Below, piece after piece: positions 6,314 through 22,365 of a stretch of 32,000 nucleotides of DNA. The stretch's first letter is position 1; each line of letters starts with the position of its first letter. The translations under genes and the position numbers were made by a program. The DNA lies in assembly GCF_004102945.1 (NCBI RefSeq), contig NZ_CP019384.1, forward strand, positions 660,001 through 692,000. The letters are read 5' to 3'. This DNA is from Candidatus Velamenicoccus archaeovorus (GTDB taxonomy: Bacteria; Omnitrophota; Gorgyraeia; Velamenicoccales; Velamenicoccaceae). Under the pieces are notes generated by a model. The model was not told where the DNA came from and did no database searches. It saw only the letters and a list, made by a program, of their open reading frames with translations.

Positions 6314-6462
6314 CCATCGGTTTGTCAAGAGCAATCCCGATTTTTTTAAAGGCAGGTCTCATGTGCGGAACTGCCACATTGTTTAGTCTCCGACAAAGGG
6401 ATAACGTGCGAATTTGCTCCAGAAAACCATGCTTCGTAGCATTATCGCACATAGACGGTTGA
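6314..6462 (+). pseudogene. decayed copy of the miaB 5-prime coding region (equivalent to miaB nt 29233-29370), starting exactly at the CC(A/T)TCGG junction motif
   Basis: Colinear short blocks shared with 29233-29368: ccNtcggNt(t)gtca, tcc(g)gatt, aa(a/g)ggc, gcggaa, (g/t)gc(t/c)ac, ccgaNaa(a/g)gg(c)gat, gtg, aatNNtg(t/c)tc, accatgc. Order is the same and small deletions accumulate (112 vs 129 nt span). Aligned by eye only. Confidence 0.3.
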
Positions 6463-6501
6463 GCCGATTCTTCGCAAAATATACCCAGATGGAAACTCGT
6501 G

Positions 6502-7095
6502 TTATACTTTCCCTGGTTCTTGAGATCCTGTTTTTTTGATATAGAGTTTTTTCATCCATCGGTCCAGGCACCACCGCGTGATGTTAAGATTTTTTGATGT
6601 TTTTTCAAGATGCCAATCGTTGCGCCTTAAGGCTTTGAAAATCAGTTCCTTGGCAACCTGGTATAAGGCCTTCCTTAAGTCAAGACCTTTAATTCTTATG
6701 TTGGTTATTTCGATATCATCAATGGCGTGCCTGATGTATTCCTTCACCTTATGGTAATCGCAGGGTTTTTCAAATACGGCATATGCTCCCAGCCGGATAA
6801 GTTCATCGCGGCTGTATTCATCGAGGTAGGCCGAGATAATGATCACGTGAATATCCGGGAATCCTTTTTTTATAAGCTGAAGGACCTCCGTTCCTGATAA
6901 TTTCGGCATCTTGATATCCAGGAGGATCAAGTCATAACATTTGTTTTTTCTGCTAAGACAAGAGATGACTTCGGAGCTATCCAGACAAATGTCTATTTCC
7001 AGATCAATCTCTGAATAGTGCTCAAGACAATGCTTGGTATCTTGGGCGAGAGTTTCATCGTCATCGACCACCAGAACTCCGTATTTAAGTTTCAT
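6502..7095 (-). CDS. response regulator, receiver domain + Fis-type HTH (no AAA+ domain)
   Basis: VLVVDDDE...DLILLDIKMPKLSG...IIISAY...VFEKP receiver motifs. C-terminal LIFKALRRNDWHLEKTSKNLNITRWCLDRWMKKL resembles a Fis/HTH_8 motif. ATG at 7095 is preceded by GGAGA. The track start at 7098 is a TTG. Confidence 0.8.
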   Translation of the reverse strand: MKLKYGVLVVDDDETLAQDTKHCLEHYSEIDLEIDICLDSSEVISCLSRKNKCYDLILLDIKMPKLSGTEVLQLIKKGFPDIHVIIISAYLDEYSRDELIRLGAYAVFEKPCDYHKVKEYIRHAIDDIEITNIRIKGLDLRKALYQVAKELIFKALRRNDWHLEKTSKNLNITRWCLDRWMKKLYIKKTGSQEPGKV

Positions 7096-7336
7096 CAAGG
7101 TTCTCCAGATTTTGATTAAAAAAATTGCTTTATCTTAAAGTGATACATAAAGTTATGCTCTATATCATCGCATCAAAGTATTTGTGGACAGCGCTTTTCT
7201 TTGACGGATATTTTATCATAACATATTCTCTAACAAGAGTTTAGCATATTTTTTGACCAATAGCAACCCTAAAAATCAAACAATTTAATGCTTAACATCT
7301 TGTAATCAAAAAGGTTATGTAAATTCAAATAAATAA

Positions 7337-7534
7337 ATGGTTAGATTGCATAATTACCTGATTTCGTTGGTCAGGGAGGGATTTTACGGTTCGGTTAAGA
7401 TAAGCTTTGAAGATGGATTGCCTGTATCCATAAGGGAGGAGAAATCCATAGACACGGCACCGTTTAAAGAGGAGATCAGGGAAGGCGTGAAGAAAGGTTT
7501 GATTAAAAAGAAAACATTCAATGAAAAAGCTTGA
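7337..7534 (+). CDS. small protein, possibly YezD/DUF2292-like
   Basis: 65 aa. FYGSVKISFEDGLPVSIREEKSID resembles the YGSV-I-V-D-V-I-EK core of YezD-family proteins. No clear SD. An overlapping antisense ORF (7325..7585) is the alternative. Confidence 0.35.
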   Translation: MVRLHNYLISLVREGFYGSVKISFEDGLPVSIREEKSIDTAPFKEEIREGVKKGLIKKKTFNEKA

Positions 7535-7558
7535 CAAGGCGGCATTATAATGTATATT
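7531..7558 (+). promoter_or_regulatory. sigma70-type promoter (TTGACA-N16-TATATT, TG immediately upstream of -10)
   Basis: TTGACA at 7531-7536 and TATATT at 7553-7558 with TG at 7551-7552. Predicted start is near 7565, about 50 nt before the hairpin at 7613. Confidence 0.45.
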
Positions 7559-7612
7559 AGATTTTAACAATTTGGTTTTCAGCAAGCAAACAGTCCTATT
7601 GGAAAAACCGAG

Positions 7613-7657
7613 GGGCTGGTTTCTGAGACGAGACTCAGGAGCCAGCCCTTTTTATTT
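7613..7657 (+). terminator. intrinsic terminator / attenuator hairpin
   Basis: 15-bp stem (7613-7627 pairs with 7634-7648, two G-U pairs), 6-nt loop ACGAGA, then TTTTTATTT. It sits only ~17 nt before the ATG at 7674. Confidence 0.65.
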
Positions 7658-7673
7658 GCCTTACGGATATCTC

Positions 7674-8084
7674 ATGGGAAAAAGTTATCATCATAACGAT
7701 GGATTTTATACAAAGATCAACAACGATCTTTTGGCCGCTCTTTACAAATGTCCGTTCAATGGAACCGAGCTTAGGCTGATTCTTGTTGTTATCCGCAGGA
7801 CCTATGGATGGAATAAGGCGAGTGCATTTATCAGCTACGGCTGTCTTGCAGATGAGCTGGGGGTTGACAAGCGTAGCATCCGCAGGTCAATGAAATTGCT
7901 CGTTCAAGACAAGGTCATTTTTAAAGAAAGCTCCTTTCGGACGAACCTGTTTTCCGTCAATAAGGATTATGCATCCTGGAGGTTATGGAAAAGTCCAGAT
8001 CCGAGGAACAAAAATGTCCCCCCCAACGGAGCAGATGAGGACAAGGCTGACCCTCAAAAGAGGGGCGAGGTTATCCTCACTTAA
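7674..8084 (+). CDS. replication protein O N-terminal-domain-like protein (phage/plasmid replication initiator family)
   Basis: GFYTKINNDLLAALYKCPFNGTELRLILVVIRRTYGWNKASAFISYGCLADELGVDKRSIRRSMKLLVQDKVI matches the pattern G-E-R-L-I-R-TYGW-K...IS...LA...G....I-R....L seen in phage_rep_O N-terminal domains. The track TTG start at 7572 would translate through the terminator hairpin. Confidence 0.6.
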   Translation: MGKSYHHNDGFYTKINNDLLAALYKCPFNGTELRLILVVIRRTYGWNKASAFISYGCLADELGVDKRSIRRSMKLLVQDKVIFKESSFRTNLFSVNKDYASWRLWKSPDPRNKNVPPNGADEDKADPQKRGEVILT

Positions 8085-8126
8085 AAGAAAGAAATAAAAA
8101 GATCTTTTAGTAGTAAAAAAAGGGCT

Positions 8127-8324
8127 GTGGATTCTGTGGAAAAGTCGACAAAGTCATACGACAAAAATTCAGTTTTTATTAAAGAAAGGTTTACCATCGG
8201 CAATGGTATTCCGCTGATCATATTTGGCGAGAGATTGTCGAAGGAACGTTTTGTTATTCTAACGATGAAAGATTTCTTTAGACTGACAAGGCTGTTGCTA
8301 AAAGGACAAAACAAAACGTCATGA
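8127..8324 (+). CDS. hypothetical small protein
   Basis: 65-aa ORF with a GTG start and a 4-nt overlap with the next ORF. No recognisable motif. Confidence 0.3.
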   Translation: MDSVEKSTKSYDKNSVFIKERFTIGNGIPLIIFGERLSKERFVILTMKDFFRLTRLLLKGQNKTS

Positions 8325-8512
8325 CAAATACCGACAATCCTCATATGGATAATAAGGACGAGGTTCTTGAGAAAAAGATCCGGCTGGATGATTCAGCATA
8401 TCGTTTTAAAAGAGTCCTTGAGATTCTACTTGAAGCCGATTTAAAGCGGTTGCAAAAATTATGCCAGGATGAAAAAGCCGAAACGTCAAGGAAATTAAAA
8501 AATATTACTTGA
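8321..8512 (+). CDS. hypothetical small helical protein
   Basis: 63-aa ORF with ATGA overlap to the upstream ORF. Charged helical composition. Confidence 0.35.
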   Translation: MTNTDNPHMDNKDEVLEKKIRLDDSAYRFKRVLEILLEADLKRLQKLCQDEKAETSRKLKNIT

Positions 8513-8537
8513 ATAACTTTGTATAATGATATATAAT
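8509..8537 (+). promoter_or_regulatory. candidate promoter of the HTH-recombinase 1 operon (TTGAAT-N17-TATAAT; also TTGTATAAT at 8519-8527)
   Basis: TTGAAT at 8509-8514 and TATAAT at 8532-8537. There is no SD before the ATG at 8546, so the mRNA may be leaderless. The word TTGTATAAT recurs before the second HTH-recombinase operon at 27341-27349. Confidence 0.35.
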
Positions 8538-8545
8538 CATTCACC

Positions 8546-8737
8546 ATGAGAAAGATAAAGGGACAAAAAGTATTTACGATAAAAGAGACGGCCGAAATTC
8601 TAGACGTCCATAGGATGACCATTTATCATTGGTTTAAAAAAGGCTGGGTTAAGGTGAAGCGTGATTATCGCAATTTTCCGGTATTTACGGAGAAAGATAT
8701 CGAGAATATCAAAAAATGGCGGAATACGCTGAGATAA
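8546..8737 (+). CDS. excisionase/MerR-type HTH protein (candidate recombination directionality factor or regulator)
   Basis: FTIKETAEILDVHRMTIYHWFKKGWVKVKRDYRNFPVFTEKDIENIKKW. Clear paralog of 27387..27593. It lies directly upstream of the recombinase. Confidence 0.75.
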   Translation: MRKIKGQKVFTIKETAEILDVHRMTIYHWFKKGWVKVKRDYRNFPVFTEKDIENIKKWRNTLR

Positions 8738-8763
8738 CCAGGCTAACCCGTGGGAATATTTAG

Positions 8764-10464
8764 ATGAAAGTTGCGATATATACCAGAGTAAGCACAGAAG
8801 ATCAGGCCCGGGAAGGTTACTCCATTGAGGTCCAACGGGAGTACCTTTTGGATCATGCCAGACGCATGGGGTGGGAGGTTTATAAGGTCTATACCGATGA
8901 CGTCAGCGGTTACGTGATTGACCGTCCAGCCTTGAACGAAATGCTCGAAGATGCTAGACAAAAGAGATTTGAACTGATTATCACCTATAAGCTTGACCGT
9001 TTCAGCAGAAAATTGAAAGATTTGCTCAATATAGTTGATGATCTGGCTGGTTACGGGGTCGCATATAAGTCGGCGACTGAGCCGTTTGATACTTCTACGA
9101 GCGCCGGGAAGCTTATGTTCCAGCAGCTCGGTAGTTTTGCAGAGTTTGAGAGGAACAGGATCAAGGAGAGAGTTTTTCCTGGGATGATCAAAGGGGTCCA
9201 GCAGGGCAATTGGCAAGGCGCGCGCTATGCTCCCTATGGATATTATTACAATAAAGAAAAGAAACTTTTGGAAGTGGTTCCTGAAGAGACGAATATTGTA
9301 AAGTTGATTTATACGATGTATCTGGCCAACAGAACCTCTGGACAAATTGCCGAATATCTCTATCTCAAAGAATATAAAACAAGATCCGGCGGTAGGTTCA
9401 ATTCGGCGCTTGTATGCAAGATACTCAAGAATCCCATATACCTTGGGAAACTGGTTTGGAATCAAAATCATTATGATACGAACCAGCGGACCCTGACGAG
9501 GAAAGGCTATCGATACGTGAGAAATGATCCTTCCAAGGTCGTGATCGCGCAAGGCAGGCATCAGCCCATAATCTGCCAGGATGATTTTGATGAAGTCCAG
9601 GCGAAATTAAGATCCAACCGAAGAGGTGTTCTGCATAGAATAAATGTCCTTGATTATCCCCTGACAGGTATACTTTATTGCGCGAAATGCGGCTATAGAT
9701 ACCAAGGAACATCTAATATGTCGAACCATCGGCTTAAGAAGAGGAAGCGCTGGTACAAATGTTCTTGCATGGGCACTTATCACGTGAGATGTTCCAACAG
9801 ACCTGTGAAAGCCGAAGATATAGAACCAAGGATTTTCGAAATAGTCCAGAAGATTTTCTCGCACAAAGATGCTGTCCAGGGGCGCCTTGAGAATTTGGTT
9901 AAGGCTAATCTTTATCTTAATAACGAAGATGTGAGAAAAGACCTGGATGGGTTGAGTGAGCAGCTTAAGCTGAATCTGGAGAAGCAGCGTAAACTTAATG
10001 ATGCCTTCATGGATAATTTTGTCGGTTCTGAACTTTATAGGGAGAAGGTGTCCGCATTGCGGGAAGAAGAGAAAAAAATCAATATGGCGATTGCCAAATG
10101 CAAGATAAAACTCGTAGAAAAGGAACGATCGGAAGCCTATCTAAAGACTCTTAAGCTGGCGATCGAAAATTTTGATGAGACCAAAGAAGAGATAGGCATT
10201 GTGGATAAAAAGGAGCTGTTGAAGCTGATATTCGAGTCCGTACATATCAATGGTGGTCAGATGGTTTCAGTCCGCTTGTACCAGCCATTTCAGCAAATGT
10301 ATGAGGAGGTGTTAAAAGAGTGCAACACATTGACGAATCAAGAGGTTACGAAAAAAATAAAGCCAAAAAGGGGAGTGTGTATATTAGAACCATCGGTTGG
10401 CCGTTGTCTACCTTATAGACACAGCATGGCGGATCTGGCGGAGGCGTTGATAGGTGCAGATTGA
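8764..10464 (+). CDS. large serine recombinase 1
   Basis: Resolvase catalytic N-terminus MKVAIYTRVSTEDQAREGYSIEVQ. Recombinase domain (ATEPFDTSTSAGKLMFQQLGSFAEFERNRIKERV, YAPYGYYY). Zinc-ribbon cysteines (YCAKCGYRY...WYKCSC...RCSN). Long coiled coil. Paralog of 27565..29250. Confidence 0.92.
   Translation: MKVAIYTRVSTEDQAREGYSIEVQREYLLDHARRMGWEVYKVYTDDVSGYVIDRPALNEMLEDARQKRFELIITYKLDRFSRKLKDLLNIVDDLAGYGVAYKSATEPFDTSTSAGKLMFQQLGSFAEFERNRIKERVFPGMIKGVQQGNWQGARYAPYGYYYNKEKKLLEVVPEETNIVKLIYTMYLANRTSGQIAEYLYLKEYKTRSGGRFNSALVCKILKNPIYLGKLVWNQNHYDTNQRTLTRKGYRYVRNDPSKVVIAQGRHQPIICQDDFDEVQAKLRSNRRGVLHRINVLDYPLTGILYCAKCGYRYQGTSNMSNHRLKKRKRWYKCSCMGTYHVRCSNRPVKAEDIEPRIFEIVQKIFSHKDAVQGRLENLVKANLYLNNEDVRKDLDGLSEQLKLNLEKQRKLNDAFMDNFVGSELYREKVSALREEEKKINMAIAKCKIKLVEKERSEAYLKTLKLAIENFDETKEEIGIVDKKELLKLIFESVHINGGQMVSVRLYQPFQQMYEEVLKECNTLTNQEVTKKIKPKRGVCILEPSVGRCLPYRHSMADLAEALIGAD
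10320..10418 (+). other. out-of-frame embedded ORF inside recombinase 1 encoding a MiaB-type N-terminus (orphan replacement 5-prime end)
   Basis: GAGGAGG at 10303-10309, GTG at 10320. Encodes (M)QHIDESRGYEKNKAKKGSVYIRTIG, then WPLSTL and a stop at 10416-10418. KAKKGSVYIRTIG aligns with KSPKKLRVLLRTFG of the miaB ORF at 29199-29240, and nt 10359-10396 align with 29199-29239. Confidence 0.45.
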
Positions 10465-10518
10465 TTAAGAAGTTATGCAAAAAAATTGAATTGGTTAAGG
10501 TAAAAACAGAATTCACTT

Positions 10519-11979
10519 ATGGCATTTGAAACTATTTTATTATGGGCTTCGGTTTTAATGTTCGTGAGCGTTGTTTCGAGCAAGATATCGGACAAGTTCG
10601 CGGTTCCCGTGTTGTTGTTATTTTTGGCGGTTGGGATGCTTGCCGGATCGGAAGGGATCGGCAATATAAATTTTGATAATGCTCAACTGGCAAAACAGAT
10701 CGGTATTTTAGCGCTTATATTTATTATCTTTTCAGGCGGGCTTGATACTAACTGGAAAGACACAAGACCAATTATTCTCCCGGGGATCGTGCTTTCGACT
10801 CTTGGAGTATTGGTTACGGCAATTATTACGGGGTTGTTTGCTGTTTATGTCCTCAAATTTTCTCTATTAGAAGGTGTGTTGCTTGGATCTATCGTTTCAT
10901 CTACAGACGCCGCCGCCGTATTCGCTATTCTAAGATCAAGACGCATAAGTTTGAAGAAGCCATTGAAACCGTTGCTCGAATTCGAGTCCGGCAGTAATGA
11001 TCCGATGGCTATTTTTCTGACAATGGGGTTTTTGAGTTTTTTGACCGTGAAAGGATCAGGGCTCGTTTTGCTGATTCCGAGATTCGTTCTGGATATGGGG
11101 ATGGGGGCGCTTGTCGGTTATTTAATGGCGAAGGCCATCGTTTTCTTTATCAAGCGGCTTAAATTAGATTATGAAGGCCTTTATCCGGTTATAACAATTT
11201 CATTGATCTTGTTTACTTACGTTATTGCAGTTCTTTTAAAGGGAAACGGGATCCTTGCGGTTTATCTTGCTGGGCTCGGTCTAGCGCAGGCGGAATTTCC
11301 TAATAAGAAATCCATTATGAAATTTCATGACGGTTTGGCTTGGATCAGCCAAATTGCCATGTTCGTGACTTTAGGTTTGCTCGTTTATCCTTCTCACTTG
11401 GTTCCGCTTATTGGAACAGGGTTGCTGGTTACGATTGTCCTCATGTTTATTGCCCGGCCTTTGAGCGTTTTTCTCTGCTTACTTCCGTTTAAATTCGCCG
11501 TGCCGAAAAAGATCATGCTTTCGTGGGTAGGATTGAGGGGCTCGGTTCCGATCATCTTGGCCACATTTCCGCTCGCGGCAGGCATTCCTCAGGCCGAGAC
11601 AATTTTTAATATCGTGTTTTTCATTGTCATTGCTTCTGTTTTTATTCAGGGCACGTCAATTCCTCTGGTTTCAAAACTGCTAAAGTTGGATGTGCCTTTG
11701 CCTGACAAGAAAGCATACCCTATAGAATTTGAGAAAGTTGAAGGCATTGACGCGGAACTGACGGATGTTATCGTGCCGTATAATTCAGAGGCTATTGGCA
11801 AGATGATCAAGGAATTGAATGTTCCGGTGAAATGCCTGATCATGCTTGTTTCGCGCAACGACAAATTTGTTATTCCGTCCGGGTCAACCGTGATCGAGGG
11901 CGGCGATGTTTTATTGGTGCTGGCAAATGCGGAAGATTTTTCTGTTTTGCAATGTGCTTTGGCACGATTAAAAGAATAA
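10519..11979 (+). CDS. K+/H+ (monovalent cation/proton) antiporter, NhaP2/CvrA-like, with C-terminal TrkA-C/RCK_C domain
   Basis: Multi-TM protein with the N-terminus typical of the family (ISDKFAVPVLLLFLAVGMLAGSEGIG). C-terminal soluble domain (AELTDVIVPYNSEAIGKMIKELNVPVKCLIMLVSRNDKFVIPSGSTVIEGGDVLLVLA) looks like TrkA-C. Confidence 0.8.
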   Translation: MAFETILLWASVLMFVSVVSSKISDKFAVPVLLLFLAVGMLAGSEGIGNINFDNAQLAKQIGILALIFIIFSGGLDTNWKDTRPIILPGIVLSTLGVLVTAIITGLFAVYVLKFSLLEGVLLGSIVSSTDAAAVFAILRSRRISLKKPLKPLLEFESGSNDPMAIFLTMGFLSFLTVKGSGLVLLIPRFVLDMGMGALVGYLMAKAIVFFIKRLKLDYEGLYPVITISLILFTYVIAVLLKGNGILAVYLAGLGLAQAEFPNKKSIMKFHDGLAWISQIAMFVTLGLLVYPSHLVPLIGTGLLVTIVLMFIARPLSVFLCLLPFKFAVPKKIMLSWVGLRGSVPIILATFPLAAGIPQAETIFNIVFFIVIASVFIQGTSIPLVSKLLKLDVPLPDKKAYPIEFEKVEGIDAELTDVIVPYNSEAIGKMIKELNVPVKCLIMLVSRNDKFVIPSGSTVIEGGDVLLVLANAEDFSVLQCALARLKE

Positions 11980-11996
11980 ATTCTTAGGAGCAAATA

Positions 11997-12668
11997 ATGC
12001 GGATATTATTAGTAGAAGATGAAATAAAAATAGCTAATTTTATTGAGCGCGGGCTGAAAGAAGAGAATTATGTTGTTGATGTGGCGACCGATGGGGAGAA
12101 AGCCATGTTTCTGGCGGAAATAAACCCGTATGATTTGATTATTCTTGATGTCATGCTTCCGCATATAGACGGGATCACTATATGCCGAGAGTTAAGAAAA
12201 AAGAAGATCAACGTGCCCATTTTAATGCTTACCGCAAAAAATCAGGTGAGGGATAAGGTTTTAGGATTAAATTCCGGAGCGGATGATTATCTTGCGAAGC
12301 CGTTTGATTTCGAAGAGCTTTCGGCTAGGATCGGAGCATTACTAAGAAGGAATAGGGATGATAAGACTGGCATTTTAAAAATTGGAGATTTAGAACTAGA
12401 CCAATTACGTCATAACGTTAAAAGAGCGGGAAAAGAAATTCAGCTCAGCAGTAAGGAATTCGCGCTTCTGGAATACCTAATGCTTAATGCCAATCATGTT
12501 GTTACCCGGACAACGATTTCTGAGCATGTCTGGCATGAGGATTTCGATAGTTTCACCAATGTTATTGATGTATTTATCAGTTTTTTACGTAATAAGATAG
12601 ATAAAGATTTTAAGAAACCGCTTATTCATACCATTCATGGTAAAGGTTACACGATAAGGGAGGAATAA
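11997..12668 (+). CDS. OmpR-family response regulator (CusR/CopR-like)
   Basis: MRILLVEDE...DLIILDVMLPHIDG...LMLTAK...DDYLAKPF receiver motifs plus a winged-helix C-terminus (LSSKEFALLEYLMLN...IHTIHGKGYTI). Confidence 0.9.
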   Translation: MRILLVEDEIKIANFIERGLKEENYVVDVATDGEKAMFLAEINPYDLIILDVMLPHIDGITICRELRKKKINVPILMLTAKNQVRDKVLGLNSGADDYLAKPFDFEELSARIGALLRRNRDDKTGILKIGDLELDQLRHNVKRAGKEIQLSSKEFALLEYLMLNANHVVTRTTISEHVWHEDFDSFTNVIDVFISFLRNKIDKDFKKPLIHTIHGKGYTIREE

Positions 12669-13726
12669 TGCGTTTCAAAACCGTTAGCTTTAAACGCAGT
12701 TTTTTATACATCATATTATTGAGTGTATTTTTAGGGGGTTATTATACTGTTCTTTTTTTGCTTCGTCCCAATTTTCGGAATATTGAAATGATTTGTTATC
12801 TTTTAATGCCTTTACCTCCGGTTTTTTTGCTGGGTTATTTAATGAGCCAGATTTCAATAGGAAAGATTATTAAACCAATCAAGGAAGTTGCCGAGGTAGC
12901 TGAGGGCATTACTCATGAGGATTTAAGCAGAAGAGTTAAGGTCGAGAATGCCGGTGAAGAGACGCAGTTTTTAGTTAAGGCTTTCAATGACATGATTTCT
13001 CGCCTTGAAGCCGCCTTTGCCTATATCACCGAATCGAGTTCGTATATTGCCCATGAGCTAAAAACGCCTCTCGCAATCATGAGAGGAGAGGCGGAAGTTG
13101 CCCTAAAAAAGGAACGGGATAAAGAAGAGTATAAGCAAGTTATTATCGGTAGCTTAGAAGAAACGCGACGGATGTTTAAGATCATTGAAGACCTCTTATT
13201 GTTGACTCGCGTCAATTATCGTTCCAACGATTTGCAGCTACAGCCTTTGGATTTAAGTCAATTTGTTATAGTGTTGTTTGAAAAGGCCAAGATTTTAGCC
13301 ACGGGAAAGAATATAGCGGTCAATGCTCAAGTTCCCGACACAACGGCGTTGGTGAATGCGGATGAACCAAATCTTCGGCGTTTATTTTTAAATCTTATTG
13401 ATAATGCTATAAAATACACGCCGCAGGATGGGAAAATAGATATTGTTGCCCATTTTGAAACTGATCGCATCAGAATTTCCATCGCTGATACCGGTATCGG
13501 CATCGAACAAGAAAACCTTCCGCGACTTTTTGATAAGTTCTTTCGGATTGGTGAGAAAATAAAAGATACTGCTCCCAGCAGTGGATTAGGGTTAAGCATC
13601 GCACAATCAATAGCAAAACTTCATCAAGGTGAAATAACGGTGTCCAGTCAAATCGGAAAAGGCACTGTTTTTACCGTAGACCTGCCTCGAATTGCCGGCG
13701 ATATCCCTCCGAATCCTCACGAATAA
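12668..13726 (+). CDS. sensor histidine kinase (two closely spaced TM helices, HAMP, HisKA, HATPase_c)
   Basis: H-box SSYIAHELKTPL, N-box LIDNAIKYT, G-boxes DTGIGI and GLGLSIA. TAATG overlap with the regulator gene. Almost no extracytoplasmic loop between the TM segments (intramembrane-sensing type). Confidence 0.9.
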   Translation: MRFKTVSFKRSFLYIILLSVFLGGYYTVLFLLRPNFRNIEMICYLLMPLPPVFLLGYLMSQISIGKIIKPIKEVAEVAEGITHEDLSRRVKVENAGEETQFLVKAFNDMISRLEAAFAYITESSSYIAHELKTPLAIMRGEAEVALKKERDKEEYKQVIIGSLEETRRMFKIIEDLLLLTRVNYRSNDLQLQPLDLSQFVIVLFEKAKILATGKNIAVNAQVPDTTALVNADEPNLRRLFLNLIDNAIKYTPQDGKIDIVAHFETDRIRISIADTGIGIEQENLPRLFDKFFRIGEKIKDTAPSSGLGLSIAQSIAKLHQGEITVSSQIGKGTVFTVDLPRIAGDIPPNPHE

Positions 13727-13896
13727 TCATTAAAAATTTTAATTATTATTTAACCTTTCGTTAATCCCCTTTTTGATACATTTGTAGCAGCTAAGGGGCT
13801 TAAAAAATATTCAACGATTTGAGATTGTTTAACATTTTCTCGCAGCCTCAATTTTACAGGGGCCAGGGGTTGCTGCTTATTAAGAGGAAATGCATC

Positions 13897-14088
13897 ATGT
13901 GTCCTTATTTTGTTGCTACAAGACCGATTGGTCATTGCGGATGTTACGGAGACGGTTTATTTCGCCCCAACATCAAACGCAAAAGACAATATTGTGTCGG
14001 TAAATTTATGAATTGCCCACTCTATCAATTACAAATGAAGTCCATTATTATCAAATCCGTGCGGGGATCAAAAAGTGATGAGGCATGA
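13897..14088 (+). CDS. MCPYF Cys-rich miniprotein, copy 1 (unknown family)
   Basis: AAGAGGA SD then ATG at 13897. MCPYFVATRPIGHCGCYGDGLFRPNIKRKRQYCVGKFMNCPLYQL. Paralog of 15554..15736, sharing M-C-P-Y-F-x8-C-x7-F-x-P-x2-K-R-x4-C-x-G-x-F-x2-C-x2-Y-Q-L. Confidence 0.55.
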   Translation: MCPYFVATRPIGHCGCYGDGLFRPNIKRKRQYCVGKFMNCPLYQLQMKSIIIKSVRGSKSDEA

Positions 14089-14750
14089 ATATTTTAGTTT
14101 GGTTATTGCGCAATTATTGGATGAATACGGAGGATGTTTTAATGATAGCCATTGAGAAAGAACTTCGGAAATTAAACGATGATTTACTTCAAATTTGCCG
14201 TTTGACGCAGGAGGCAATAAGAAACATTTCTGGCGTTCTGATGCGTTTTGATGCCGAGAATACGCAAGAGATAATAGATAATAACAAAAAAATAAGGGTT
14301 CTTTGCGTCGCTTACGAAGAATATTTTACTAATATCGTTAGACAATATCACCCCGAGGACAGTGTCTTGAAATTCATCTCTTCAAGCATAAACATTAGTA
14401 GCGAATTAAAACAAATTACGGACTTAACCGCCGGTATTGCGGAGAGCTTATTAAGCTTGAATACAAATATCCCTGACAAGGATAAAATCAATATTTCTCA
14501 ATTCGCTATAATTTTTCAAAATATAGTTTGGGATTCGGTCATTTCATTTTTAAAACAAGACACGGCGTTAGCGAAGAAAACTGTTTTAACAAGCCTGACA
14601 CTAAAAAAGATATGCAGCCGTAGACAGGATGAGTTAATAGAGACAAATAAAACAGCAGAATCGACGGTGAGAGGCGAAACTGTTTTATTATTTATTATTC
14701 AGAGCGTAAGAGATATTGCTACGCACACTGTGAATATTGCCAAGATTTGA
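14085..14750 (+). CDS. PhoU-domain protein
   Basis: Two PhoU-like repeats ending SELKQITDLTAGIAESL and QSVRDIATHTVNIAKI (compare LERIGDHATNIAE). The ATGA overlap with the upstream miniprotein suggests coupling. An alternative start is ATG 14142 after GGAGGA. Confidence 0.6.
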   Translation: MNILVWLLRNYWMNTEDVLMIAIEKELRKLNDDLLQICRLTQEAIRNISGVLMRFDAENTQEIIDNNKKIRVLCVAYEEYFTNIVRQYHPEDSVLKFISSSINISSELKQITDLTAGIAESLLSLNTNIPDKDKINISQFAIIFQNIVWDSVISFLKQDTALAKKTVLTSLTLKKICSRRQDELIETNKTAESTVRGETVLLFIIQSVRDIATHTVNIAKI

Positions 14751-14822
14751 GAATTATTCGCAATTTTACGCTTTCCCAGCCTTACTGCTGCTTATTAAAC
14801 GAATAAAAGACGGGAATTCTAA

Positions 14823-15551
14823 ATGATGAGGATATTGATAGTTGAAGATGAGGACAAGGTGCGAAAGTTACATGCGGAATTGCTTGAAAGCGAAGGGTAT
14901 GCAGTGGTAAGCGTTTCTGACGCCGTGCAAGCCAGCGAAATTTTACTTAGAAAACATTTTGATATTATCCTGCTGGACATCAACCTTCCTCATGTTTATG
15001 GAAGCGTATTGTTTGATCTTATGCAGGTATTTCATAAGAGTATAAAAGTGATTGTAACGAGCGTTTATCCTGTTGAAGAACAGCGGGAAATAATGAAAGA
15101 TGCCGCAGAGTACTATGACAAAGCTCAAGGTGTCGATATTTTGCTTGAGAAAATCAAGAAAGTTGCGCGCAGTTTAATGCCGTTAAACACGATACTTATT
15201 ATCGAAGATGAATTCAAAATAAGAAAGTTGTTCAGTAGTCAATTGGAGGGTCTTGGATACCGCACCTTGGAAGCTGAAGATGGAGAATCGGGGCTGGAAT
15301 TGTTTGATAAAGAGCGGGGTATTGGATTAGTTATTCTTGATATTGCACTTTCTAAAAAAACCGGCATGAAAGTTTATGAAAGCATCAAGAGAAGGACTCC
15401 TCCGGCAAAAATCATAGTGTCCAGCGTCTTTCCGAAAGATGATCAGCAGTCTTTAATCAAAGAAGCGGACGATTATTTTGATAAAACGGAAGGTGTCAGC
15501 ATCCTCATAGAGAAAGTTGAGCGCATTCTTAATGTTGGCAGAGGAAATTAA
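14823..15551 (+). CDS. tandem double-receiver protein (REC-REC, no output domain)
   Basis: Two complete receiver domains: ILIVEDE..DIILLDINLP..VIVTSV..YYDK and ILIIEDE..LVILDIAL..IIVSSV..YFDK. Confidence 0.8.
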   Translation: MMRILIVEDEDKVRKLHAELLESEGYAVVSVSDAVQASEILLRKHFDIILLDINLPHVYGSVLFDLMQVFHKSIKVIVTSVYPVEEQREIMKDAAEYYDKAQGVDILLEKIKKVARSLMPLNTILIIEDEFKIRKLFSSQLEGLGYRTLEAEDGESGLELFDKERGIGLVILDIALSKKTGMKVYESIKRRTPPAKIIVSSVFPKDDQQSLIKEADDYFDKTEGVSILIEKVERILNVGRGN

Positions 15552-15553
15552 TC

Positions 15554-15736
15554 ATGTGTCCGTATTTTATATCGAAAGAAAGGAATAATTTTTGCGAAGG
15601 AGTATCGAGTAATGCCTTTTCTCCCAGTGAGAAACGACAGGAAGAACATTGCCGTGGTAGTTTTATAAGGTGTGTGTTTTATCAATTAAAAACTGGGTGG
15701 CCTATAGGATTCCAGGAGTCCATAAGGGAAAAATAA
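15554..15736 (+). CDS. MCPYF Cys-rich miniprotein, copy 2
   Basis: Starts 2 nt after the REC-REC stop, with SD AGAGGA. MCPYFISKERNNFCEGVSSNAFSPSEKRQEEHCRGSFIRCVFYQL. Confidence 0.55.
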   Translation: MCPYFISKERNNFCEGVSSNAFSPSEKRQEEHCRGSFIRCVFYQLKTGWPIGFQESIREK

Positions 15737-15783
15737 CTTAGCCAGTGTTAAGTAGCGAGAATTAAAAAGGAGGTATTTTAGAC

Positions 15784-16320
15784 ATGTCTTTTGTTATTCC
15801 GCAAAATGATTTTGTTCCAATATTGATTCCTATTTTAATTTTTCTCGCGCGGGCGGCAGACGTCAGTATGGCTGCTGTCAGGATTATTTTTGTCAGCCGA
15901 GGGATAAGGGCATTAGCTGCTATTATTGGATTTTTTGAGATGCTTGTTTGGCTTATCGGCATATCGCAAATTATGCAGAATTTGAATAACCCGATCAGCT
16001 ATATCGCTTTTGCGGGCGGCTTTAGTATGGGCACTTTTGTAGGTATTACAATCGAACGAAAAATCGCCATAGGCAATTTAGCTGTCCAGTTTATAACGAA
16101 TAAAAATCCGGCTAGTTTATTGAGATATTTTCGTTCCAAAGGATACGGCGCAACGACGATTGACGGACAGGGGACAGCGGGGCCGGTGAAGATTGTTTTT
16201 GTCATTGTCCGGCGCAAGTTGTTAGATAACGTTTTAGGCATAATAAAGAAATTTGATCAAGGTGCTTTTTATACCATTGAGGATGTCAGAGGTGTGGCGC
16301 GTCTTAATCCGGTTATTTAG
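15784..16320 (+). CDS. UPF0316/DUF2179-family membrane protein
   Basis: SD AAGGAGG. Three TM helices followed by a soluble domain (GYGATTIDGQGTAGPVKIVFVIVRRKLLDNVLGIIKKFDQGAFYTIEDVRGV), the architecture typical of UPF0316 proteins. Confidence 0.75.
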   Translation: MSFVIPQNDFVPILIPILIFLARAADVSMAAVRIIFVSRGIRALAAIIGFFEMLVWLIGISQIMQNLNNPISYIAFAGGFSMGTFVGITIERKIAIGNLAVQFITNKNPASLLRYFRSKGYGATTIDGQGTAGPVKIVFVIVRRKLLDNVLGIIKKFDQGAFYTIEDVRGVARLNPVI

Positions 16321-16708
16321 ACAGAGGCAGGACTATAAAATTGGAACGAAACTGACCATTTTGATCGCTCAAAAATACTATGATCCCGGCCAGGGCTTTA
16401 GAGAGCTTCTGGAAAAATCCGGCTATCATACGGTTTCTCTGTCCAGCCATTCGGAAATATTTGAGTTGTTAGCTCAAAAGCGCGTGGATATGGTTATTGT
16501 TGGGGTTACAACGACGATTGAGTATTGCGAAAGTATAATGCGGCAAATCAAAAAGATGAGCTTAAGGACCTGCGTTATTGTGGTGTCATCGTTACAAGAT
16601 ATCAGAGGCAAAGAGAAGTTAATTGAATTGGGGGTGCAAGAGTGGGTATATCAGCCTTTTAATATGGAATATATTAAACGAAGGGTGAAAGAAGTATTAA
16701 ACGTTTAA
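16283..16708 (+). CDS. pseudo-receiver (REC-like fold lacking phospho-acceptor residues)
   Basis: ILIAQKYYD replaces the acidic DD pocket. VDMVIVGV has Gly where the acceptor Asp is expected. VVSS is retained. YQPF has Gln in place of the conserved Lys. The start is uncertain (ATG 16283 overlaps the upstream gene; downstream TTG/CTG codons are possible). Confidence 0.5.
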   Translation: MSEVWRVLIRLFRQRQDYKIGTKLTILIAQKYYDPGQGFRELLEKSGYHTVSLSSHSEIFELLAQKRVDMVIVGVTTTIEYCESIMRQIKKMSLRTCVIVVSSLQDIRGKEKLIELGVQEWVYQPFNMEYIKRRVKEVLNV

Positions 16709-16742
16709 TAAGCTGTCCGACATTGACCTTGAAAGGAGGTGA

Positions 16743-16799
16743 ATGGCAATGGGGATTATGTGGCGATCAAAAAAAGGTAAAAAACGAAAGGGACGATAA
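16743..16799 (+). CDS. polybasic micro-ORF 1 (18 aa: MAMGIMWRSKKGKKRKGR)
   Basis: AGGAGG at 16734-16739 just upstream. C-terminal KKGKKRKGR matches KKAKKRKK of micro-ORF 2. Confidence 0.3.
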   Translation: MAMGIMWRSKKGKKRKGR

Positions 16800-17030
16800 A
16801 CCTTCATGGATCAATGGGCCTCCTGCAATCCCAGAAAAACACTGGAGGCCTATTGCTGAATTCGATTATTTTCAGGCTTATACCGTAATCCGAATGATAA
16901 TTTGGCATAAAATTTAATGTTACGGTTTGAGCCTTGGTTTTTATAAACTTTCGGAAGATGCTAGAACATATCAGATTGGTCGATGAGATCTATTGGCTGG
17001 ATATTTAAAACAAGTTAAAGGGGATATGAA

Positions 17031-17348
17031 ATGATGAAGAGAAAGAGGTTCGGGATGCTTAAACTGATTGTGGCTATTCTTCCGAAAGGAAAAATAAAGG
17101 CAATAATGCCAGTCCTTAAAGACACTGGGATTTTTGGCGCTACTGTGCTTTCCGGTAAGGGGCTGTGTACAGAAGCTGGTAGACGCACAATTGGTTTACA
17201 GATTGGTTCATGTAGAGAGATTTTAATTCTTCTGACGCTGGATGTTAACAGAGAGAAACTCATCAAAGTACTGGAAAAACATGGTAACTTAAAAGAGCCG
17301 GGACAAGGTATTCTTTTTGTAATGAATGTCAACCGTGTTGTTGGATAA
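17031..17348 (+). CDS. P-II (GlnB)-like signal transduction protein
   Basis: SD AAGGGGA. LKLIVAILPKGKIKAIMPVLKDTGIFGATVLSGKGL...EILILLTLDVNREKLIKVLEKHG...GQGILFVMNVNRVVG follows the beta-alpha-beta P-II pattern with a T-loop-like insert. Confidence 0.6.
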   Translation: MMKRKRFGMLKLIVAILPKGKIKAIMPVLKDTGIFGATVLSGKGLCTEAGRRTIGLQIGSCREILILLTLDVNREKLIKVLEKHGNLKEPGQGILFVMNVNRVVG

Positions 17349-17365
17349 AAAGGGAGGGGGTAAAA

Positions 17366-17782
17366 ATGACAAGTAAAACTATATATATTACCGATAATGA
17401 TATGAGAAGATTACGGGAATTGATAATGGTTGCGAGACAATTTAAAAAAGAAGAAGAGAAGTATTTGCAGGATTTAGAAGCTGAGCTGAACAGGGGCAAA
17501 ATCATAAAATCTCAAGATATTCCGCAGGACATTATCACGATGAGCTCGGAAGTTCATTTGCGAGATTTAAACACAAAAGAAGAAATAACGTATCAATTGG
17601 TTTTCCCCGATCAGGCCGATGCTAGTCAGGGGAGAGTTTCAATCTTAGCGCCGATTGGTACGGCATTACTCGGATATAGCGTTGGGGATATTATTGAATG
17701 GAAAGTGCCTGCAGGTGTTGCGAAACTGCAGGTTGAAAAAATCATTTATCAACCGGAAGCGAACGGCGAAGATCTCTCTTGA
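17366..17782 (+). CDS. rnk: regulator of nucleoside diphosphate kinase (Rnk), GreA/GreB C-terminal-domain family
   Basis: SD GGGAGGGGG. End-to-end resemblance to E. coli Rnk as recalled from memory, not database-checked (ITDNDMRRL..., DIITMSSEVHLRDLNT, VSILAPIGTALLGYSVGDIIEWKVPAGV, YQPEA). Confidence 0.85.
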   Translation: MTSKTIYITDNDMRRLRELIMVARQFKKEEEKYLQDLEAELNRGKIIKSQDIPQDIITMSSEVHLRDLNTKEEITYQLVFPDQADASQGRVSILAPIGTALLGYSVGDIIEWKVPAGVAKLQVEKIIYQPEANGEDLS

Positions 17783-17821
17783 TATTATAAGCGTTAAAAA
17801 ATAGAAGGGGGGTGAGAACCG

Positions 17822-17872
17822 ATGGGGGATAAGGTCGCAAATAAGAAGAAGGCTAAAAAGAGAAAGAAGTAA
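17822..17872 (+). CDS. polybasic micro-ORF 2 (16 aa: MGDKVANKKKAKKRKK)
   Basis: SD AAGGGGGG at 17805-17812. It is followed directly by the 15-bp-stem hairpin. Confidence 0.3.
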   Translation: MGDKVANKKKAKKRKK

Positions 17873-17878
17873 TGTTTT

Positions 17879-17923
17879 TACAAGAATCCTTCCGTAATGC
17901 CTTATTGCGGGAGGATTCTTGTA
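17879..17923 (+). terminator. long hairpin, candidate terminator closing the cargo operon
   Basis: TACAAGAATCCTTCC (17879-17893) pairs with GGGAGGATTCTTGTA (17909-17923) across a 15-nt loop. Only TTT follows, so the termination call is tentative. Confidence 0.4.
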
Positions 17924-17944
17924 TTTACGAAATATGTTGTTAAG

Positions 17945-18245
17945 TGGCACTGGGTCCTTGGAAGGGGGCTTGGGTGAGGGTCGGGCGAGGCGCAAGGAGC
18001 CAGTGATAGTGGTTAAAAAAATCGATGTCCATGTCCATCACTTTTGGGGTTTGGGCATAAGTGGTCAACCCGGCCAAAATGAGCGTCCAGCGACGGGAAA
18101 TAGGCGATTTTAGGGGTGTTTTAGGGACTCCCGGGAAGGCCGAAAAAGGGCATTTTGATGGACATGGATGGACGCGCAAATGTCCATCCCGGCACAAATT
18201 TACGGCATTTCTGACAAATATCTTGCTTTATTTATAAGATGATAT
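17945..18245. repeat. noncoding module, copy 1 (diverged direct repeat of 26840-27130)
   Basis: Blocks shared in the same order with copy 2: GGGTCCTTGG (17952-17961), the identical 23-mer GGGTGAGGGTCGGGCGAGGCGCA (17972-17994), CAGTGAT (18001-18007), ATGTCCATGTCCAT (18025-18038), GAGCGTC (18081-18087), AGGGGTGTTTT (18112-18122). The word ATGGACAT occurs 5 times in both orientations. Confidence 0.8.
18211..18238 (+). promoter_or_regulatory. candidate promoter of the controller-mod-res operon (CTGACA-N16-TATAAG)
   Basis: CTGACA at 18211-18216 and TATAAG at 18233-18238. The predicted start lies a few nt before ATG 18249 and there is no SD, so the controller mRNA may be leaderless. Confidence 0.35.
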
Positions 18246-18248
18246 AAA

Positions 18249-22338: not shown

Positions 22339-22365
22339 TTTGCTATCGCTATAGGATAACTCGTT

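Follow-up and report, generated by a model that had tools for sequence, protein, structure and literature searches.

The 32,000-nt stretch of DNA analysed here (the window) carries two large serine recombinase (LSR) genes, LSR1 and LSR2, and a miaB gene whose start lies within the end of LSR2. The genes and features, which we assign below to two putative integrative elements, are as follows.

6361..10399, plus strand: putative element 1, known extent (blastn homology to contigs L001 and L002; Pfam and PHROG annotation)
6502-7098, minus strand: response regulator with a Fis-type HTH
7572-8084: RepO-like protein
8764..10464, plus strand: LSR1, large serine recombinase of 566 aa, long read-through form (Resolvase, Recombinase and Zn_ribbon_recom domains)
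10303..10309, plus strand: ribosome-binding motif GAGGAGG of cassette 1 (in the LSR frame, part of a conserved Y-E-E)
10320..10418, plus strand: orphaned miaB 5' cassette ORF (cassette 1) inside the LSR1 ORF (same cassette fused to live miaB in L001 and L002)
10398..10399, plus strand: probable crossover dinucleotide TG at the hybrid junction of the element 1 right (P) arm and the element 2 left (P') arm (variable flanking bases; end of ortholog homology)
10400..29242, plus strand: putative element 2, 18,843 bp counting one TG (annotation; GC; repeat copies)
10400..10464, plus strand: left (P') arm, the left end of element 2, starting GCCGTTGTCTACCTTATAG…
10519-17782: element 2 cargo block (Na/H exchanger, two-component system, PhoU, response regulators, DUF2179, P-II, GreA-like protein)
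18449-22338: type III-like methylase and ResIII helicase of element 2
22366-22977: HTH protein of element 2
23364-25727: primase of element 2, followed by LSR2
27565..29250, plus strand: LSR2, 561 aa, short integrated form (domains; comparison with LSR1)
29137..29240, plus strand: live cassette 2 (ribosome-binding motif GAAGAGGGG at 29137-29145; ATG at 29151; 30 element-encoded codons, MVENERKDDNTGDSGGKSPKKLRVLLRTFG)
29151..30398, plus strand: chimeric live miaB, 415 aa (UPF0004 and Radical_SAM domains; 30 N-terminal codons from element 2, the rest from the host)
29241..29242, plus strand: probable crossover dinucleotide TG at attR of element 2 (host-variable base starts at Cys codon position three)

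LSR1 and LSR2 are paralogs (43% identical) that are collinear up to …PS. Each has the resolvase catalytic domain PF00239 (E 2.5e-38 in LSR1, 8.1e-34 in LSR2), with the serine-nucleophile motif Y-x-R-V-S-T-x-x-Q present at residues 5-14 as IYTRVSTEDQ and LYTRVSTEDQ, respectively, and both score over the gathering scores of PF07508 and PF13408 (Recombinase, zinc beta-ribbon). The final 22 codons of LSR1 (10399-10464; VGRCLPYRHSMADLAEALIGAD) cross the crossover position defined below, the remainder being coded by the left arm of element 2, and the LSR1 ortholog in L001 is a 547-aa protein that ends at a TGA supplied by the host. In LSR2 the last two codons and the TGA stop (29248-29250) derive from the Cys-Gln-Met-Asn codons of the host miaB. 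Exact-protein look-up returned no record of the 566-aa LSR1 protein and a single match for LSR2, a 1.8-kb contig.

The product of the miaB gene passes the MiaB equivalog model (TIGR01574, 379.6 bits versus a cutoff of 355.3) and contains PF00919, PF04055 and the radical-SAM motif CDNFCSYC; a TRAM domain was not found by profile search, the protein ending at 415 aa and matching profile positions 3-376 of 437. Identical or near-identical copies of cassette 2, which codes its N-terminus, occur in five other contigs (L010, L012, L013, L015 and L027), where the host MiaB diverges immediately past GCQMN. LSR2-type elements that are 90-99.6% identical occupy hosts whose MiaB is 42-52% identical to that of the window, and identity between them falls immediately after GGATG. 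Identical element-borne N-termini are thus found on divergent host MiaB proteins, with the displaced native 5' ends at the other end of the element, the arrangement of a target-restoring element.

A second miaB-like start is contained within the tail of LSR1. In the +2 frame, a TGA at 10302-10304 is followed by GAGGAGG at 10303-10309 and a GTG at 10320-10322, from which the frame reads VQHIDESRGYEKNKAKKGSVYIRTIG, 26 MiaB-like codons (…SVYIRTIG) with the Gly codon GGT at 10395-10397; past the Gly it takes six codons (WPLSTL) from the junction and the P' arm and closes at a TAG at 10416-10418. An earlier note on this DNA, made from the sequence, had placed all of these landmarks (TGA, GAGGAGG, GTG, WPLSTL and stop) correctly. 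The LSR1 orthologs in L001 and L002 (78% aa identity) have the same ribosome-binding site and GTG, including an identical 18 nt 5' of the GTG (TGAGGAGGTGTTAAAAGA), and there the frame runs on as …SVYIATYGCQMNVRDSE into a full, live miaB.

The note had further proposed that a portable miaB 5' cassette sits at a matching position in both paralogous recombinases, and this was borne out as a family-wide trait. The recombinase 3' end overlaps a miaB-type start in another frame in all 24 of the database relatives with sufficient downstream DNA, which come from Omnitrophota, Elusimicrobia and Planctomycetes MAGs (miaB in 23; mtaB in L003). When the two window copies are added, 26/26 tails have a miaB frame that is open from 28-49 codons ahead of the Gly; each also has a start codon 23-37 codons 5' of the Gly, in most cases with a purine-rich ribosome-binding motif in front of the start, and these comparisons establish the breadth of the cassette in the family at the level of sequence. 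The C-terminus takes the form [DAVG][VA][RK]-stop in 95 of 111 full-length protein-database homologs, an ending that we take to be the signature of a host-supplied recombinase stop.

Two comparisons that the note had suggested were carried out. Conservation of the alternative frame favoured a coding role, as the substitutions in the overlap among near-identical LSR2 elements were synonymous in the miaB frame in 5/5 cases and non-synonymous in the LSR frame in 4/5; across the family, miaB-frame third positions vary most. Direct alignment of the two cassettes was weakly positive: a strict local aligner gave no gain (score 16 for 10300-10420 versus 29130-29260, shuffles 15.6±2.5) and was replaced by an alignment anchored on the TG together with the family comparisons. 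Without gaps, the TG-anchored cassettes share 16/24, 24/42 and 34/60 identities, and cassette 1 outranks every other of ~64,000 window positions as a match to the LSR2 tail, the tail itself excepted. The nucleotide similarity of cassette 1 to cassette 2 is weak, and for cassette 1 we regard the comparative evidence as decisive.

The crossover was assigned to the TG that forms the first two bases of the invariant MiaB Cys codon, because the preceding base depends on the left partner and the following base on the host. The base 5' of the TG differs among 14 distinct native left arms and is T in the window junction versus A in the LSR2 arm, the sequence 3' of the TG at left-arm junctions being invariant (GCCGTTGTCTACC); at attR, the junctions of near-identical elements with different hosts begin to differ at position three of the Cys codon, where the base is T or C. 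Homology of the window to the LSR1 orthologs L001 and L002 stops at base 10399 (blastn). Over 30 junctions have variable bases flanking the TG on either side, which narrows the breakpoints to this dinucleotide, and these sequence comparisons fix their position; the TG is presumably the central dinucleotide at which the LSRs catalyse the exchange. The earlier note had placed the crossover at or beside CC(A/T)TCGG, with homology breaking after ATCGG in one cassette and TTCGG in the other. Its adjacency to that sequence holds; the exact place does not, as the TG lies one base on (10398-10399 and 29241-29242) and the homology breaks 3 nt later, after GGTTG and GGATG, so that the crossover falls 1-3 nt to the right of the former placement. 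Dyad symmetry in the rebuilt attP and attB was weak (11/36 positions) and was left out of the evidence.

The DNA to the right of 10399 is a mobile left end by comparison with other assemblies. Window positions 10400 to ~18186 recur in 18 other contigs at 93-99.7% identity (≥97% in most copies), and a left-arm 25-mer that occurs once in the window is matched exactly in L081-L087 and L089-L099. Its first nucleotide directly follows one of 14 distinct native miaB 5' ends (e.g., MKQDKKSIFIETYG and MIRKSVYIRTLG) or, in L094, another LSR tail, and we therefore identify the DNA from 10400 as the left end of element 2. In the window, this arm ends the orphan miaB frame with its TAG and gives read-through LSR1 a 21-codon tail and a stop. 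The interior of element 2 is mosaic, L081 and L084 diverging from the window after 18186, and no contig was seen to run from a native miaB 5' end through one copy of element 2 to LSR2. GC content is ~41% across 6-29 kb versus 52-53% in miaB and the flank beyond. In a scan of IMG/VR, the left-arm 25-mer was without a match and a 20-mer from the LSR2 tail matched L101 only. As a multi-copy metagenome repeat, the left block of element 2 could mislead an assembler downstream of the junction.

Element 1 is homologous to L002 over 6361-7103, 7321-7856 and 8620-10399, and to L001 over 8386-10399 (blastn); in addition to the genes listed it holds two small ORFs. A search of window positions 1-8764 by peptide motif and by the DNA pattern ACN-NNN-GGN-TG returned neither attL1 nor a displaced native miaB 5' fragment, and the outermost attL may be located left of the window. 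The sole match to the attL1 pattern, at 7800 (…VVIRRTYG followed by W), lies inside the conserved RepO-like gene and was rejected as a decoy because homology to L002 and L028 continues through it. The GC content shifts at ~5-6.3 kb, where there is no miaB remnant. Exact-protein look-ups of a 1777-aa protein and a 93-aa ORF gave no match, an Rfam scan of the window gave no families, and the consensus fold of an 80-nt repeat was unconvincing.

From these comparisons, we read the window as a head-to-tail array of two integrative elements of one miaB-targeting LSR family, with 10398-10399 as their hybrid junction, and give this reading a probability of roughly 85%. LSR1 and LSR2 share an orientation; up to 10399 the arm is homologous to that of the LSR1 orthologs, and past it lies the left end of element 2. 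Because element 2 separates LSR1 from miaB, the TG at 10398-10399 would be the point where the right arm of element 1 meets element 2's left arm. The earlier note had left two options for this site, a P1/P'2 hybrid junction and an unrecombined attP; the first is supported, as the DNA on the right was traced to the left end of the LSR2 element, with its 14 native miaB 5' ends, and the second is not.

The recombinases of the family would insert in the 5' end of miaB, at the TG of the codon for the Cys of the MiaB motif T-(F/Y)-G-C-Q-M-N. By itself, such an insertion would decapitate miaB; the right end of the element would bring a surrogate with a ribosome-binding site, a start codon and 23-37 codons for the N-terminus, which occupies the +2 frame over the final ~100 nt of the recombinase gene itself, so that miaB would be rebuilt upon insertion. 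In the integrated state, the ATG-AAY (Met-Asn) codons of the host would in turn give the recombinase its TGA stop. Recombination by these LSRs at the TG, and translation of the cassettes, we infer from the sequences.

In the window, insertion of element 2 would have cut cassette 1 off from miaB, which is now headed by cassette 2 of LSR2; as a consequence, the orphan MiaB frame reaches a TAG after 6 codons and LSR1 extends 22 codons into element 2. The order favoured is element 1 first, with element 2 entering later at the rebuilt LSR1-tail/miaB site, since the tail of LSR1 looks like a native left arm: on a matrix of native left arms it scores 12.6, the top site of the window, native arms scoring 11.4-33.9 and background -26±9. 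The left arm of element 2 scored as a right arm gives -20.5 versus 19.7-38.2 for native right arms, and these arm scores together favour entry of element 2 into a pre-existing LSR1/miaB site. The predicted joint of an element 2 circle is CGCACCTTCGGA-TG-GCCGTTGTCTACC, and that of the restored LSR1/miaB site is AGAACCATCGGT-TG-TCAGATGAAC.

An unlikely alternative is that LSR1's own element has its left end in the DNA that follows 10399, the site being an unrecombined attP inside one composite or circularly permuted element. The junction is attP-like by construction (a recombinase tail arm and a P'-type arm), similar LSR tail-TG-non-miaB junctions are present in L094, L101, L180, L181 and L184, some of which could be excised forms, and the P' arms of different elements are related, so that LSR1 might recognise P'2. 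The contig is, however, colinear from 10400 to LSR2 and the host miaB, hence there is no circle; the P'2 arm goes with LSR2-clade recombinases both in the window and in L094; and the base before the TG is that of the LSR1 clade (GGT, as in L001 and L002) rather than the A of the LSR2 clade, as predicted by a TG crossover between two different elements. A search upstream in L180, L181 and L184 for the element's own left arm returned the junction itself only.

Given little weight as well is the explanation that metagenome assembly created the 10399/10400 join, or wrongly linked the repeated cargo block to this LSR2 and miaB. The cargo block is a near-identical repeat in many genomes from similar sample types, and many contigs break at or near it (L085, L091, L098 and L099). 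The exact LSR1 protein is unmatched elsewhere and the collections held no second contig with the same LSR1/element 2 junction, so that the junction rests on a single assembly. The LSR1 tail, on the other hand, shares with the other left partners of the block only the TG and scattered bases, a k-mer overlap too short for such a join, and analogous junctions are present independently in other assemblies.

It is very improbable that 10400-18186 is host chromosome, with element 1 inserted at a pseudo-site upstream of it and unrelated to element 2. The genes do look like housekeeping genes, and the block is conserved in many contigs with variable flanks on both sides; but a block that begins at an identical nucleotide beside 14 miaB N-terminal fragments bears the signature of a mobile left end, its GC content (37-44%) fits the elements and not the host flank, and it scores, as noted, far below real right arms as a target. 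The last explanation, that the MiaB-like peptide is a chance by-product of recombinase-tail homology with no coding role, could draw on the resemblance of frames in homologous DNA and on the failure of strict local alignment to exceed shuffles, but is effectively refuted already by the open frame and start codon in every tail compared, the ribosome-binding motif in most, the fusion to full miaB in orthologs and the synonymous substitutions; the hidden frame of LSR1 is not due to chance.

Under the tandem-array reading, the crossover inside the recombinase frame means that integration alters the C-terminus of the recombinase. In six of six junctions with DNA, the integrated form stops 2 codons past the crossover and the read-through form 16-21 codons past it. 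We suggest, tentatively and with the odds against it, that the ~20 post-crossover codons may be a selected C-terminal tail and that the enzyme has two forms according to integration state: a long form, made from the free element and at tandem junctions (as for LSR1, with a foreign tail from element 2), and a short form, which would end in two host-encoded residues after integration. The short and long forms would have 547 and 566 aa for LSR1 and 561 and 580 aa for LSR2. The complete read-through tails all have ≥16 codons, with a mode of 19-21 (15 cases, not independent, as several are related by descent); read in either of its other frames, this DNA reaches a stop after 0-28 codons. Between the window arm and L184 the tail DNA has diverged substantially, yet both tails are 21 codons long with 11/21 residues in common, include L/I swaps that each need two nucleotide changes, and have different stop codons at the same position. 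The position of the host TGA reads TGG, which opens the frame, in 5/6 left arms with DNA, and TGT in the arm of the window. Within the P'2 family the tail region is almost invariant in the selection comparison. The first ~6 tail residues (x-R-W-x-x-Y) coincide with a probable recombinase-binding half-site. If there is such a tail, it could, by analogy with Mx8 IntP, set the balance of integration and excision or the stability of the protein.

One stretch of ~100 nt would serve as recombinase 3' end and attachment-site arm and would also give an unrelated host enzyme its ribosome-binding site, start codon and N-terminus, and this dual coding with a host-supplied recombinase stop is a clean natural case for the study of overlapping-frame selection. 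Because the crossover would fall in the first two bases of the codon for an invariant Fe-S-ligand Cys, one element could enter hosts that share only ~40-50% identity in MiaB, a breadth of host reach that bears on the exchange of genes in uncultured phyla about which little is known, Omnitrophota and Elusimicrobia among them. As each insertion would rebuild a usable target, elements can stack, and the miaB locus may grow into an array of restriction-modification, other defence and transport cargo. A serine integrase family for which attP, attB and central dinucleotide can be deduced from natural junctions is also a candidate set for genome engineering.

Target-restoring integrated elements and their tandem arrays are already known. 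The miaB-targeting family and its dual-coded cassette appear to be undescribed so far; literature searches returned no description of miaB-targeting serine-recombinase elements or of Omnitrophota recombinases. The integrases of phiC31, Bxb1, A118 and SPbeta have the same domain architecture, with short attP and attB sites that share little identity past the polarity-setting central dinucleotide, and classical serine-integrase phages usually disrupt or ignore their target (comK for A118, groEL1 for Bxb1), with attP outside the int ORF; here, in contrast, the target gene is restored and attP extends across the ORF end.

The SCC/SCCmec elements (PMC11470126) share with the present family the use of LSRs, a conserved RNA-modification gene as target (rlmH), tandem or composite arrays at one site, and defence cargo; they target the 3' end of rlmH with no surrogate start cassette over ccr, whereas here the 5' end of miaB is targeted. 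The best NCBIfam matches of LSR1 and LSR2 are CcrB and CcrC (196-222 bits versus a cutoff of 900, the CcrB scores being 221.6 and 195.8 bits), and because these scores are far under the family cutoffs, LSR1 and LSR2 are not Ccr proteins.

The dusA-specific islands and prophages, which are widespread across many hosts, are alike in that the 5' end of a tRNA-modification gene is replaced by island sequence and the gene is left intact (Farrugia et al. 2015, PMC4482086). They differ in using tyrosine integrases with dusA as target, rather than serine recombinases with miaB, and the replacement 5' end is not reported to lie out of frame within the integrase gene (PMC4482086). An attachment site within the integrase coding sequence, with a new 3' end upon integration, is found in Mx8 intP/attP and in the archaeal ‘suicidal’ SSV-type integrases, and in Mx8 the new 3' end alters the properties of the enzyme (PMC6070905, PMC8371274). 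Those are tyrosine recombinases acting at tRNA genes (PMC6070905, PMC8371274), whereas here a serine recombinase would swap its last ~20 codons only; and, unlike in Mx8 and SSV, the DNA at the swapped end here also codes the N-terminus of the target gene.

The large serine recombinases of element 1 (LSR1, left) and element 2 (LSR2, right) are paralogous, 43% identical, and collinear as far as …VC(I/F)(L/C)(E/A)PS. The features that bear on their tails are:

20-5353: Big_1-repeat protein, 1777 aa, in the region of ~59% GC
at least 6361-10399: element 1, by homology to the related locus L002; response regulator, RepO-like protein, LSR1
8764-10464, plus strand: LSR1, 566 aa; Resolvase, Recombinase and Zn-ribbon domains
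10400-29242: element 2, 18,843 bp, ending at LSR2
10519-11979: Na/H exchanger, nearest gene right of 10399; identical protein on at least 20 contigs
27565-29250, plus strand: LSR2, 561 aa; Resolvase, Recombinase and Zn-ribbon domains
29151-30398, plus strand: miaB, start overlapped by the LSR2 tail; TIGR01574 (MiaB equivalog) 379.6 bits, cutoff 355.3

The +2 frame described in an earlier note within the LSR1 tail was found by inspection just as claimed, with TGA at 10302-10304, GAGGAGG at 10303-10309 and GTG at 10320; it encodes VQHIDESRGYEKNKAKKGSVYIRTIG, then WPLSTL, and closes with TAG at 10416-10418. The nucleotide alignment proposed there between the two tails held in part: a strict local aligner did no better than with shuffled sequences, whereas ungapped alignment anchored on the shared TG gave identities of 16/24, 24/42 and 34/60, a better match to the LSR2 tail than any other non-self one in the window. 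The two tails resemble each other weakly in nucleotides. The MiaB of the window (415 aa) is without the C-terminal TRAM domain, its match to the profile covering positions 3-376 of 437; the gene that follows, for a SPOR/TPR protein (30382-31173), overlaps the miaB 3' end.

A scan with the LSR1/LSR2 alignment, covering a single genome for each species, gave 28 close relatives (L001-L028), from Omnitrophota, Elusimicrobia and Planctomycetes MAGs. Downstream DNA was sufficient in 24 of them, and in all 24 the 3' end of the recombinase gene overlaps, in another frame, the start of a miaB-type gene, which is miaB in 23 and its paralog mtaB in L003 (GCKVN in place of the miaB motif; TIGR01579 397.5 bits, cutoff 357); the family has moved between these paralogous methylthiotransferase targets. 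The L003 recombinase (L003:3922-5200) is 49% identical to LSR1 and has the same overlapping fusion, to mtaB (…FLTLGCKVNQYE). The miaB frame is open from 28-49 codons ahead of the Gly in T-(F/Y)-G-C-Q-M-N in 26/26 tails (the 24 relatives and the two window copies), each with a start codon (ATG, GTG or TTG) 23-37 codons upstream of that Gly and most with a purine-rich ribosome-binding motif ahead of it, so that the portable miaB 5' cassette postulated for both recombinases (cassette 1 in LSR1, cassette 2 in LSR2) is a family trait. In the LSR1 orthologs of L001 and L002 (78% aa identity) the ribosome-binding and GTG region is identical to that of the LSR1 tail, and the cassette frame (…RSVYIATYGCQMNVRDSE) continues into an intact miaB.

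A search of 5.8 billion proteins found the C-terminus [DAVG][VA][RK]-stop in 95 of 111 full-length homologs, because the recombinase frame crosses GGN-TGY-CAR-ATG-AAY and ends at the TGA within ATG-AA. Among LSR2 elements 90-99.6% identical, all five substitutions in the 90-nt overlap were synonymous in the miaB frame, and four of the five altered a recombinase residue; family-wide, variation over the last 11 codons is greatest at third positions of the miaB frame. Together these show the miaB frame to be the one under selection, and they bear out the conservation of the alternative frame on which the cassette claim depended. An Elusimicrobiales MAG (L020) holds a 173-nt inverted repeat, 99% complementary (L020:2513-2685 / L020:4452-4624), formed by the recombinase gene's final 173 nt, ending at TG, and an inverted copy ~290 nt upstream of that gene; from TG the copy passes into unrelated DNA, where the miaB frame stops immediately and the recombinase frame continues 19 codons. 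The repeat may be a segment that the recombinase can invert, or the scar of a rearrangement.

LSR2-type elements nearly identical to that of the window (L010, L012, L013, L015, L027) lie in hosts whose MiaB shares only 42-52% identity with that of the window; all have the constant N-terminus MVENERKDDNTGDSGGKSPKKLRVLLRTFGCQMN and diverge directly after it, the first host-variable DNA base being the third position of the Cys codon. LSR1-side homology to L001 and L002 ends at base 10399 (blastn). In contigs fetched via the exchanger, DNA from 10400 to ~18186 (to 18741 in L082) is 98.5-99.7% identical and DNA left of 10400 differs from contig to contig; a further 11 junctions (93-99% identity to the window) came from scanning metagenomes for the 25-mer TGGCCGTTGTCTACCTTATAGACAC. 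In total, 14 distinct miaB 5' ends that look native, such as ATG-AAA-CAA-GAT-AAG-AAG-TCC-ATA-TTT-ATT-GAA-ACC-TAC-GGC (MKQDKKSIFIETYG), MIRKSVYIRTLG and …KVFLQTFG, are joined at GGN-TG|GCCGTTGTCTACC, and since they meet at one nucleotide base 10400 is the left end of a mobile element. The base preceding TG varies among left partners (A, C, G or T) and the base after it varies with the host, so TG is bracketed on both sides; we place the crossover at the TG of 10398-10399 and 29241-29242, one base past the CC(A/T)TCGG at or next to which the earlier note put it. The LSR1 arm reads GGT, as in LSR1 orthologs, and the LSR2 arm GGA in nine near-identical copies, as a TG crossover between two different elements would predict. 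In one more junction, that of L094, the left partner is the tail of another LSR2-clade recombinase. In L081 (4589-5130), and likewise in L082 and L083, it is a miaB-like start (MNKAITSKNVFLKTMG) with an HTH_17 gene, KAP NTPase, SEC-C and AbiEii genes and a transposase upstream; this may be the right end of a further kind of element, its cassette lacking an adjacent serine recombinase.

Of the two readings first offered for the site, an unrecombined attP or a hybrid junction, the latter is supported, as the right arm is the left end of an element seen with LSR2-clade recombinases; 10398-10399 is thus most likely the internal junction of an element 1/element 2 array. A native attP of element 1 is unlikely, given that right arm and a contig that proceeds colinearly to LSR2 and the host. 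The exact LSR1 is absent from all other assemblies searched, as might be expected of an assembly chimera at 10399/10400, yet the join has no shared k-mer able to produce one and analogous junctions occur independently in five other loci (L094, L101, L180, L181, L184); a chimera is improbable. That the cargo block is host DNA is scarcely credible, since it meets 14 different miaB-fragment partners at one nucleotide.

That block (10400-18186) encodes the exchanger, a two-component system, PhoU, response regulators, DUF2179, P-II and a GreA-like protein; beyond it element 2 carries a type III-like methylase and helicase pair, an HTH protein, a primase and LSR2. GC is ~41% over both elements against 52-53% in miaB and beyond. 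The block is 93-99.7% identical in 18 other contigs (L081-L087, L089-L099), and its near-identity beside 14 miaB 5' partners suggests that it has spread across hosts very recently. The sequence that follows it on the right is mosaic (a LexA-like protein, Dam methylase and others in L081 and L084, against the type III-like system here), and L094 has a ~940-bp deletion of 13855-14796. An ~80-nt conserved non-coding motif (GGGTCCTT…GAGGGTCGGGCGAGGCGC…GTCAGTGATAC…ATCGATGTCATGTCA) occurs twice in element 2 (17950-18044, 26840-26930), the first copy adjoining the mosaic breakpoint at ~18186, past which L081 and L084 differ from the window, and also, in L010, L015, L022 and L025, ~650 nt ahead of the recombinase; it had no Rfam match and its consensus fold is weak. 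Defence genes are carried by, or adjoin, further family members: in L180 (2976-12632) a read-through recombinase is followed directly by an OLD-type nuclease with UvrD helicase (Gabija-like), a ThsB-TIR protein and a type I restriction system, and in L181 (1-10000) a SIR2 protein is located upstream. The miaB site has the look of a hotspot for defence islands.

At the hybrid junction the orphan MiaB frame runs six foreign codons to its TAG, which lies within a C/T-TATAG motif common to three related left arms (window 10411-10418, L181, L184), 13-20 nt past the crossover, and closes the frame after 6 codons in all three; the motif may be bound by the recombinase or selected to end a stray peptide. 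LSR1 misses the host TGA and continues 22 codons (VGRCLPYRHSMADLAEALIGAD) to 10464, giving 566 aa against 547 aa in L001. The host-supplied stop is likewise missing from 16/111 full-length homologs, three or four of them probably cut by contig ends. Complete read-through tails, counted over homologs and junctions with DNA, are at least 16 codons long in 15/15 (mode 19-21), these cases being few, partly related by descent and overlapping a probable DNA-binding site; the other two frames stop after 0-28 codons. The first tail residues (x-R-W-x-x-Y) mirror a conserved left-arm DNA motif, which in the junction sequences compared imitates the right arm of miaB (CCAGATG) as far as the base converting the host TGA to TGG. 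Beyond these residues the window and L184 tails keep a common length of 21 codons, with 11/21 residues shared, L/I exchanges that each take two nucleotide changes, and stop codons that differ but coincide in position, which hints at protein-level constraint. Were that so, the recombinase would have forms that depend on integration state, LSR1 here having a foreign long tail; we hold this possible but less likely than not.

With element 2 between LSR1 and the host, miaB is now led by cassette 2. Both orders of insertion lead to an identical final structure. On a position matrix made from 14 native left arms (native scores by leave-one-out) the LSR1 tail scored 12.6, the highest in the window, against 11.4-33.9 for native arms and a window background of -26±9; the rebuilt LSR1-tail/miaB site is therefore a plausible target of element 2. 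The element 2 left arm scored as a right arm gave -20.5, against 19.7-38.2 for native right arms, so a native-5'/P'2 site (P'2 being the element 2 left end) is a poor target for element 1. We infer that element 1 likelier preceded element 2.

The displaced native miaB 5' end expected at the left end of the array (attL1) was not found in window 1-8764. Within 1-6300, GC falls from ~59% to ~41% between about 5 and 6.3 kb, a stretch with no miaB 5' remnant. Within the RepO-like gene, 7770-7811 encodes …VVIRRTYG|W (ACC TAT GGA TGG), a likeness of the miaB target motif, GGN-TG included; we judged it a coincidence of a RepO family motif, since the homology with L002 and L028 continues unbroken across it.

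The mechanism is apparently ordinary site-specific recombination put to a compact, apparently undescribed use; the literature searched contained no description of miaB-targeting serine-recombinase elements or of this dual-coded cassette. The dusA islands likewise insert in the 5' end of a tRNA-modification gene and supply a new 5' end, but by tyrosine integrases (PMC4482086) rather than serine recombinases. Mx8 and the archaeal SSV-type tyrosine integrases also have the attachment site in the integrase ORF, integration giving a new gene 3' end (PMC6070905, PMC8371274). The SCC cassettes are alike in enzyme class, single conserved target, element stacking and defence cargo; they differ in target, and LSR1 and LSR2 score far under the cutoff of the Ccr model.
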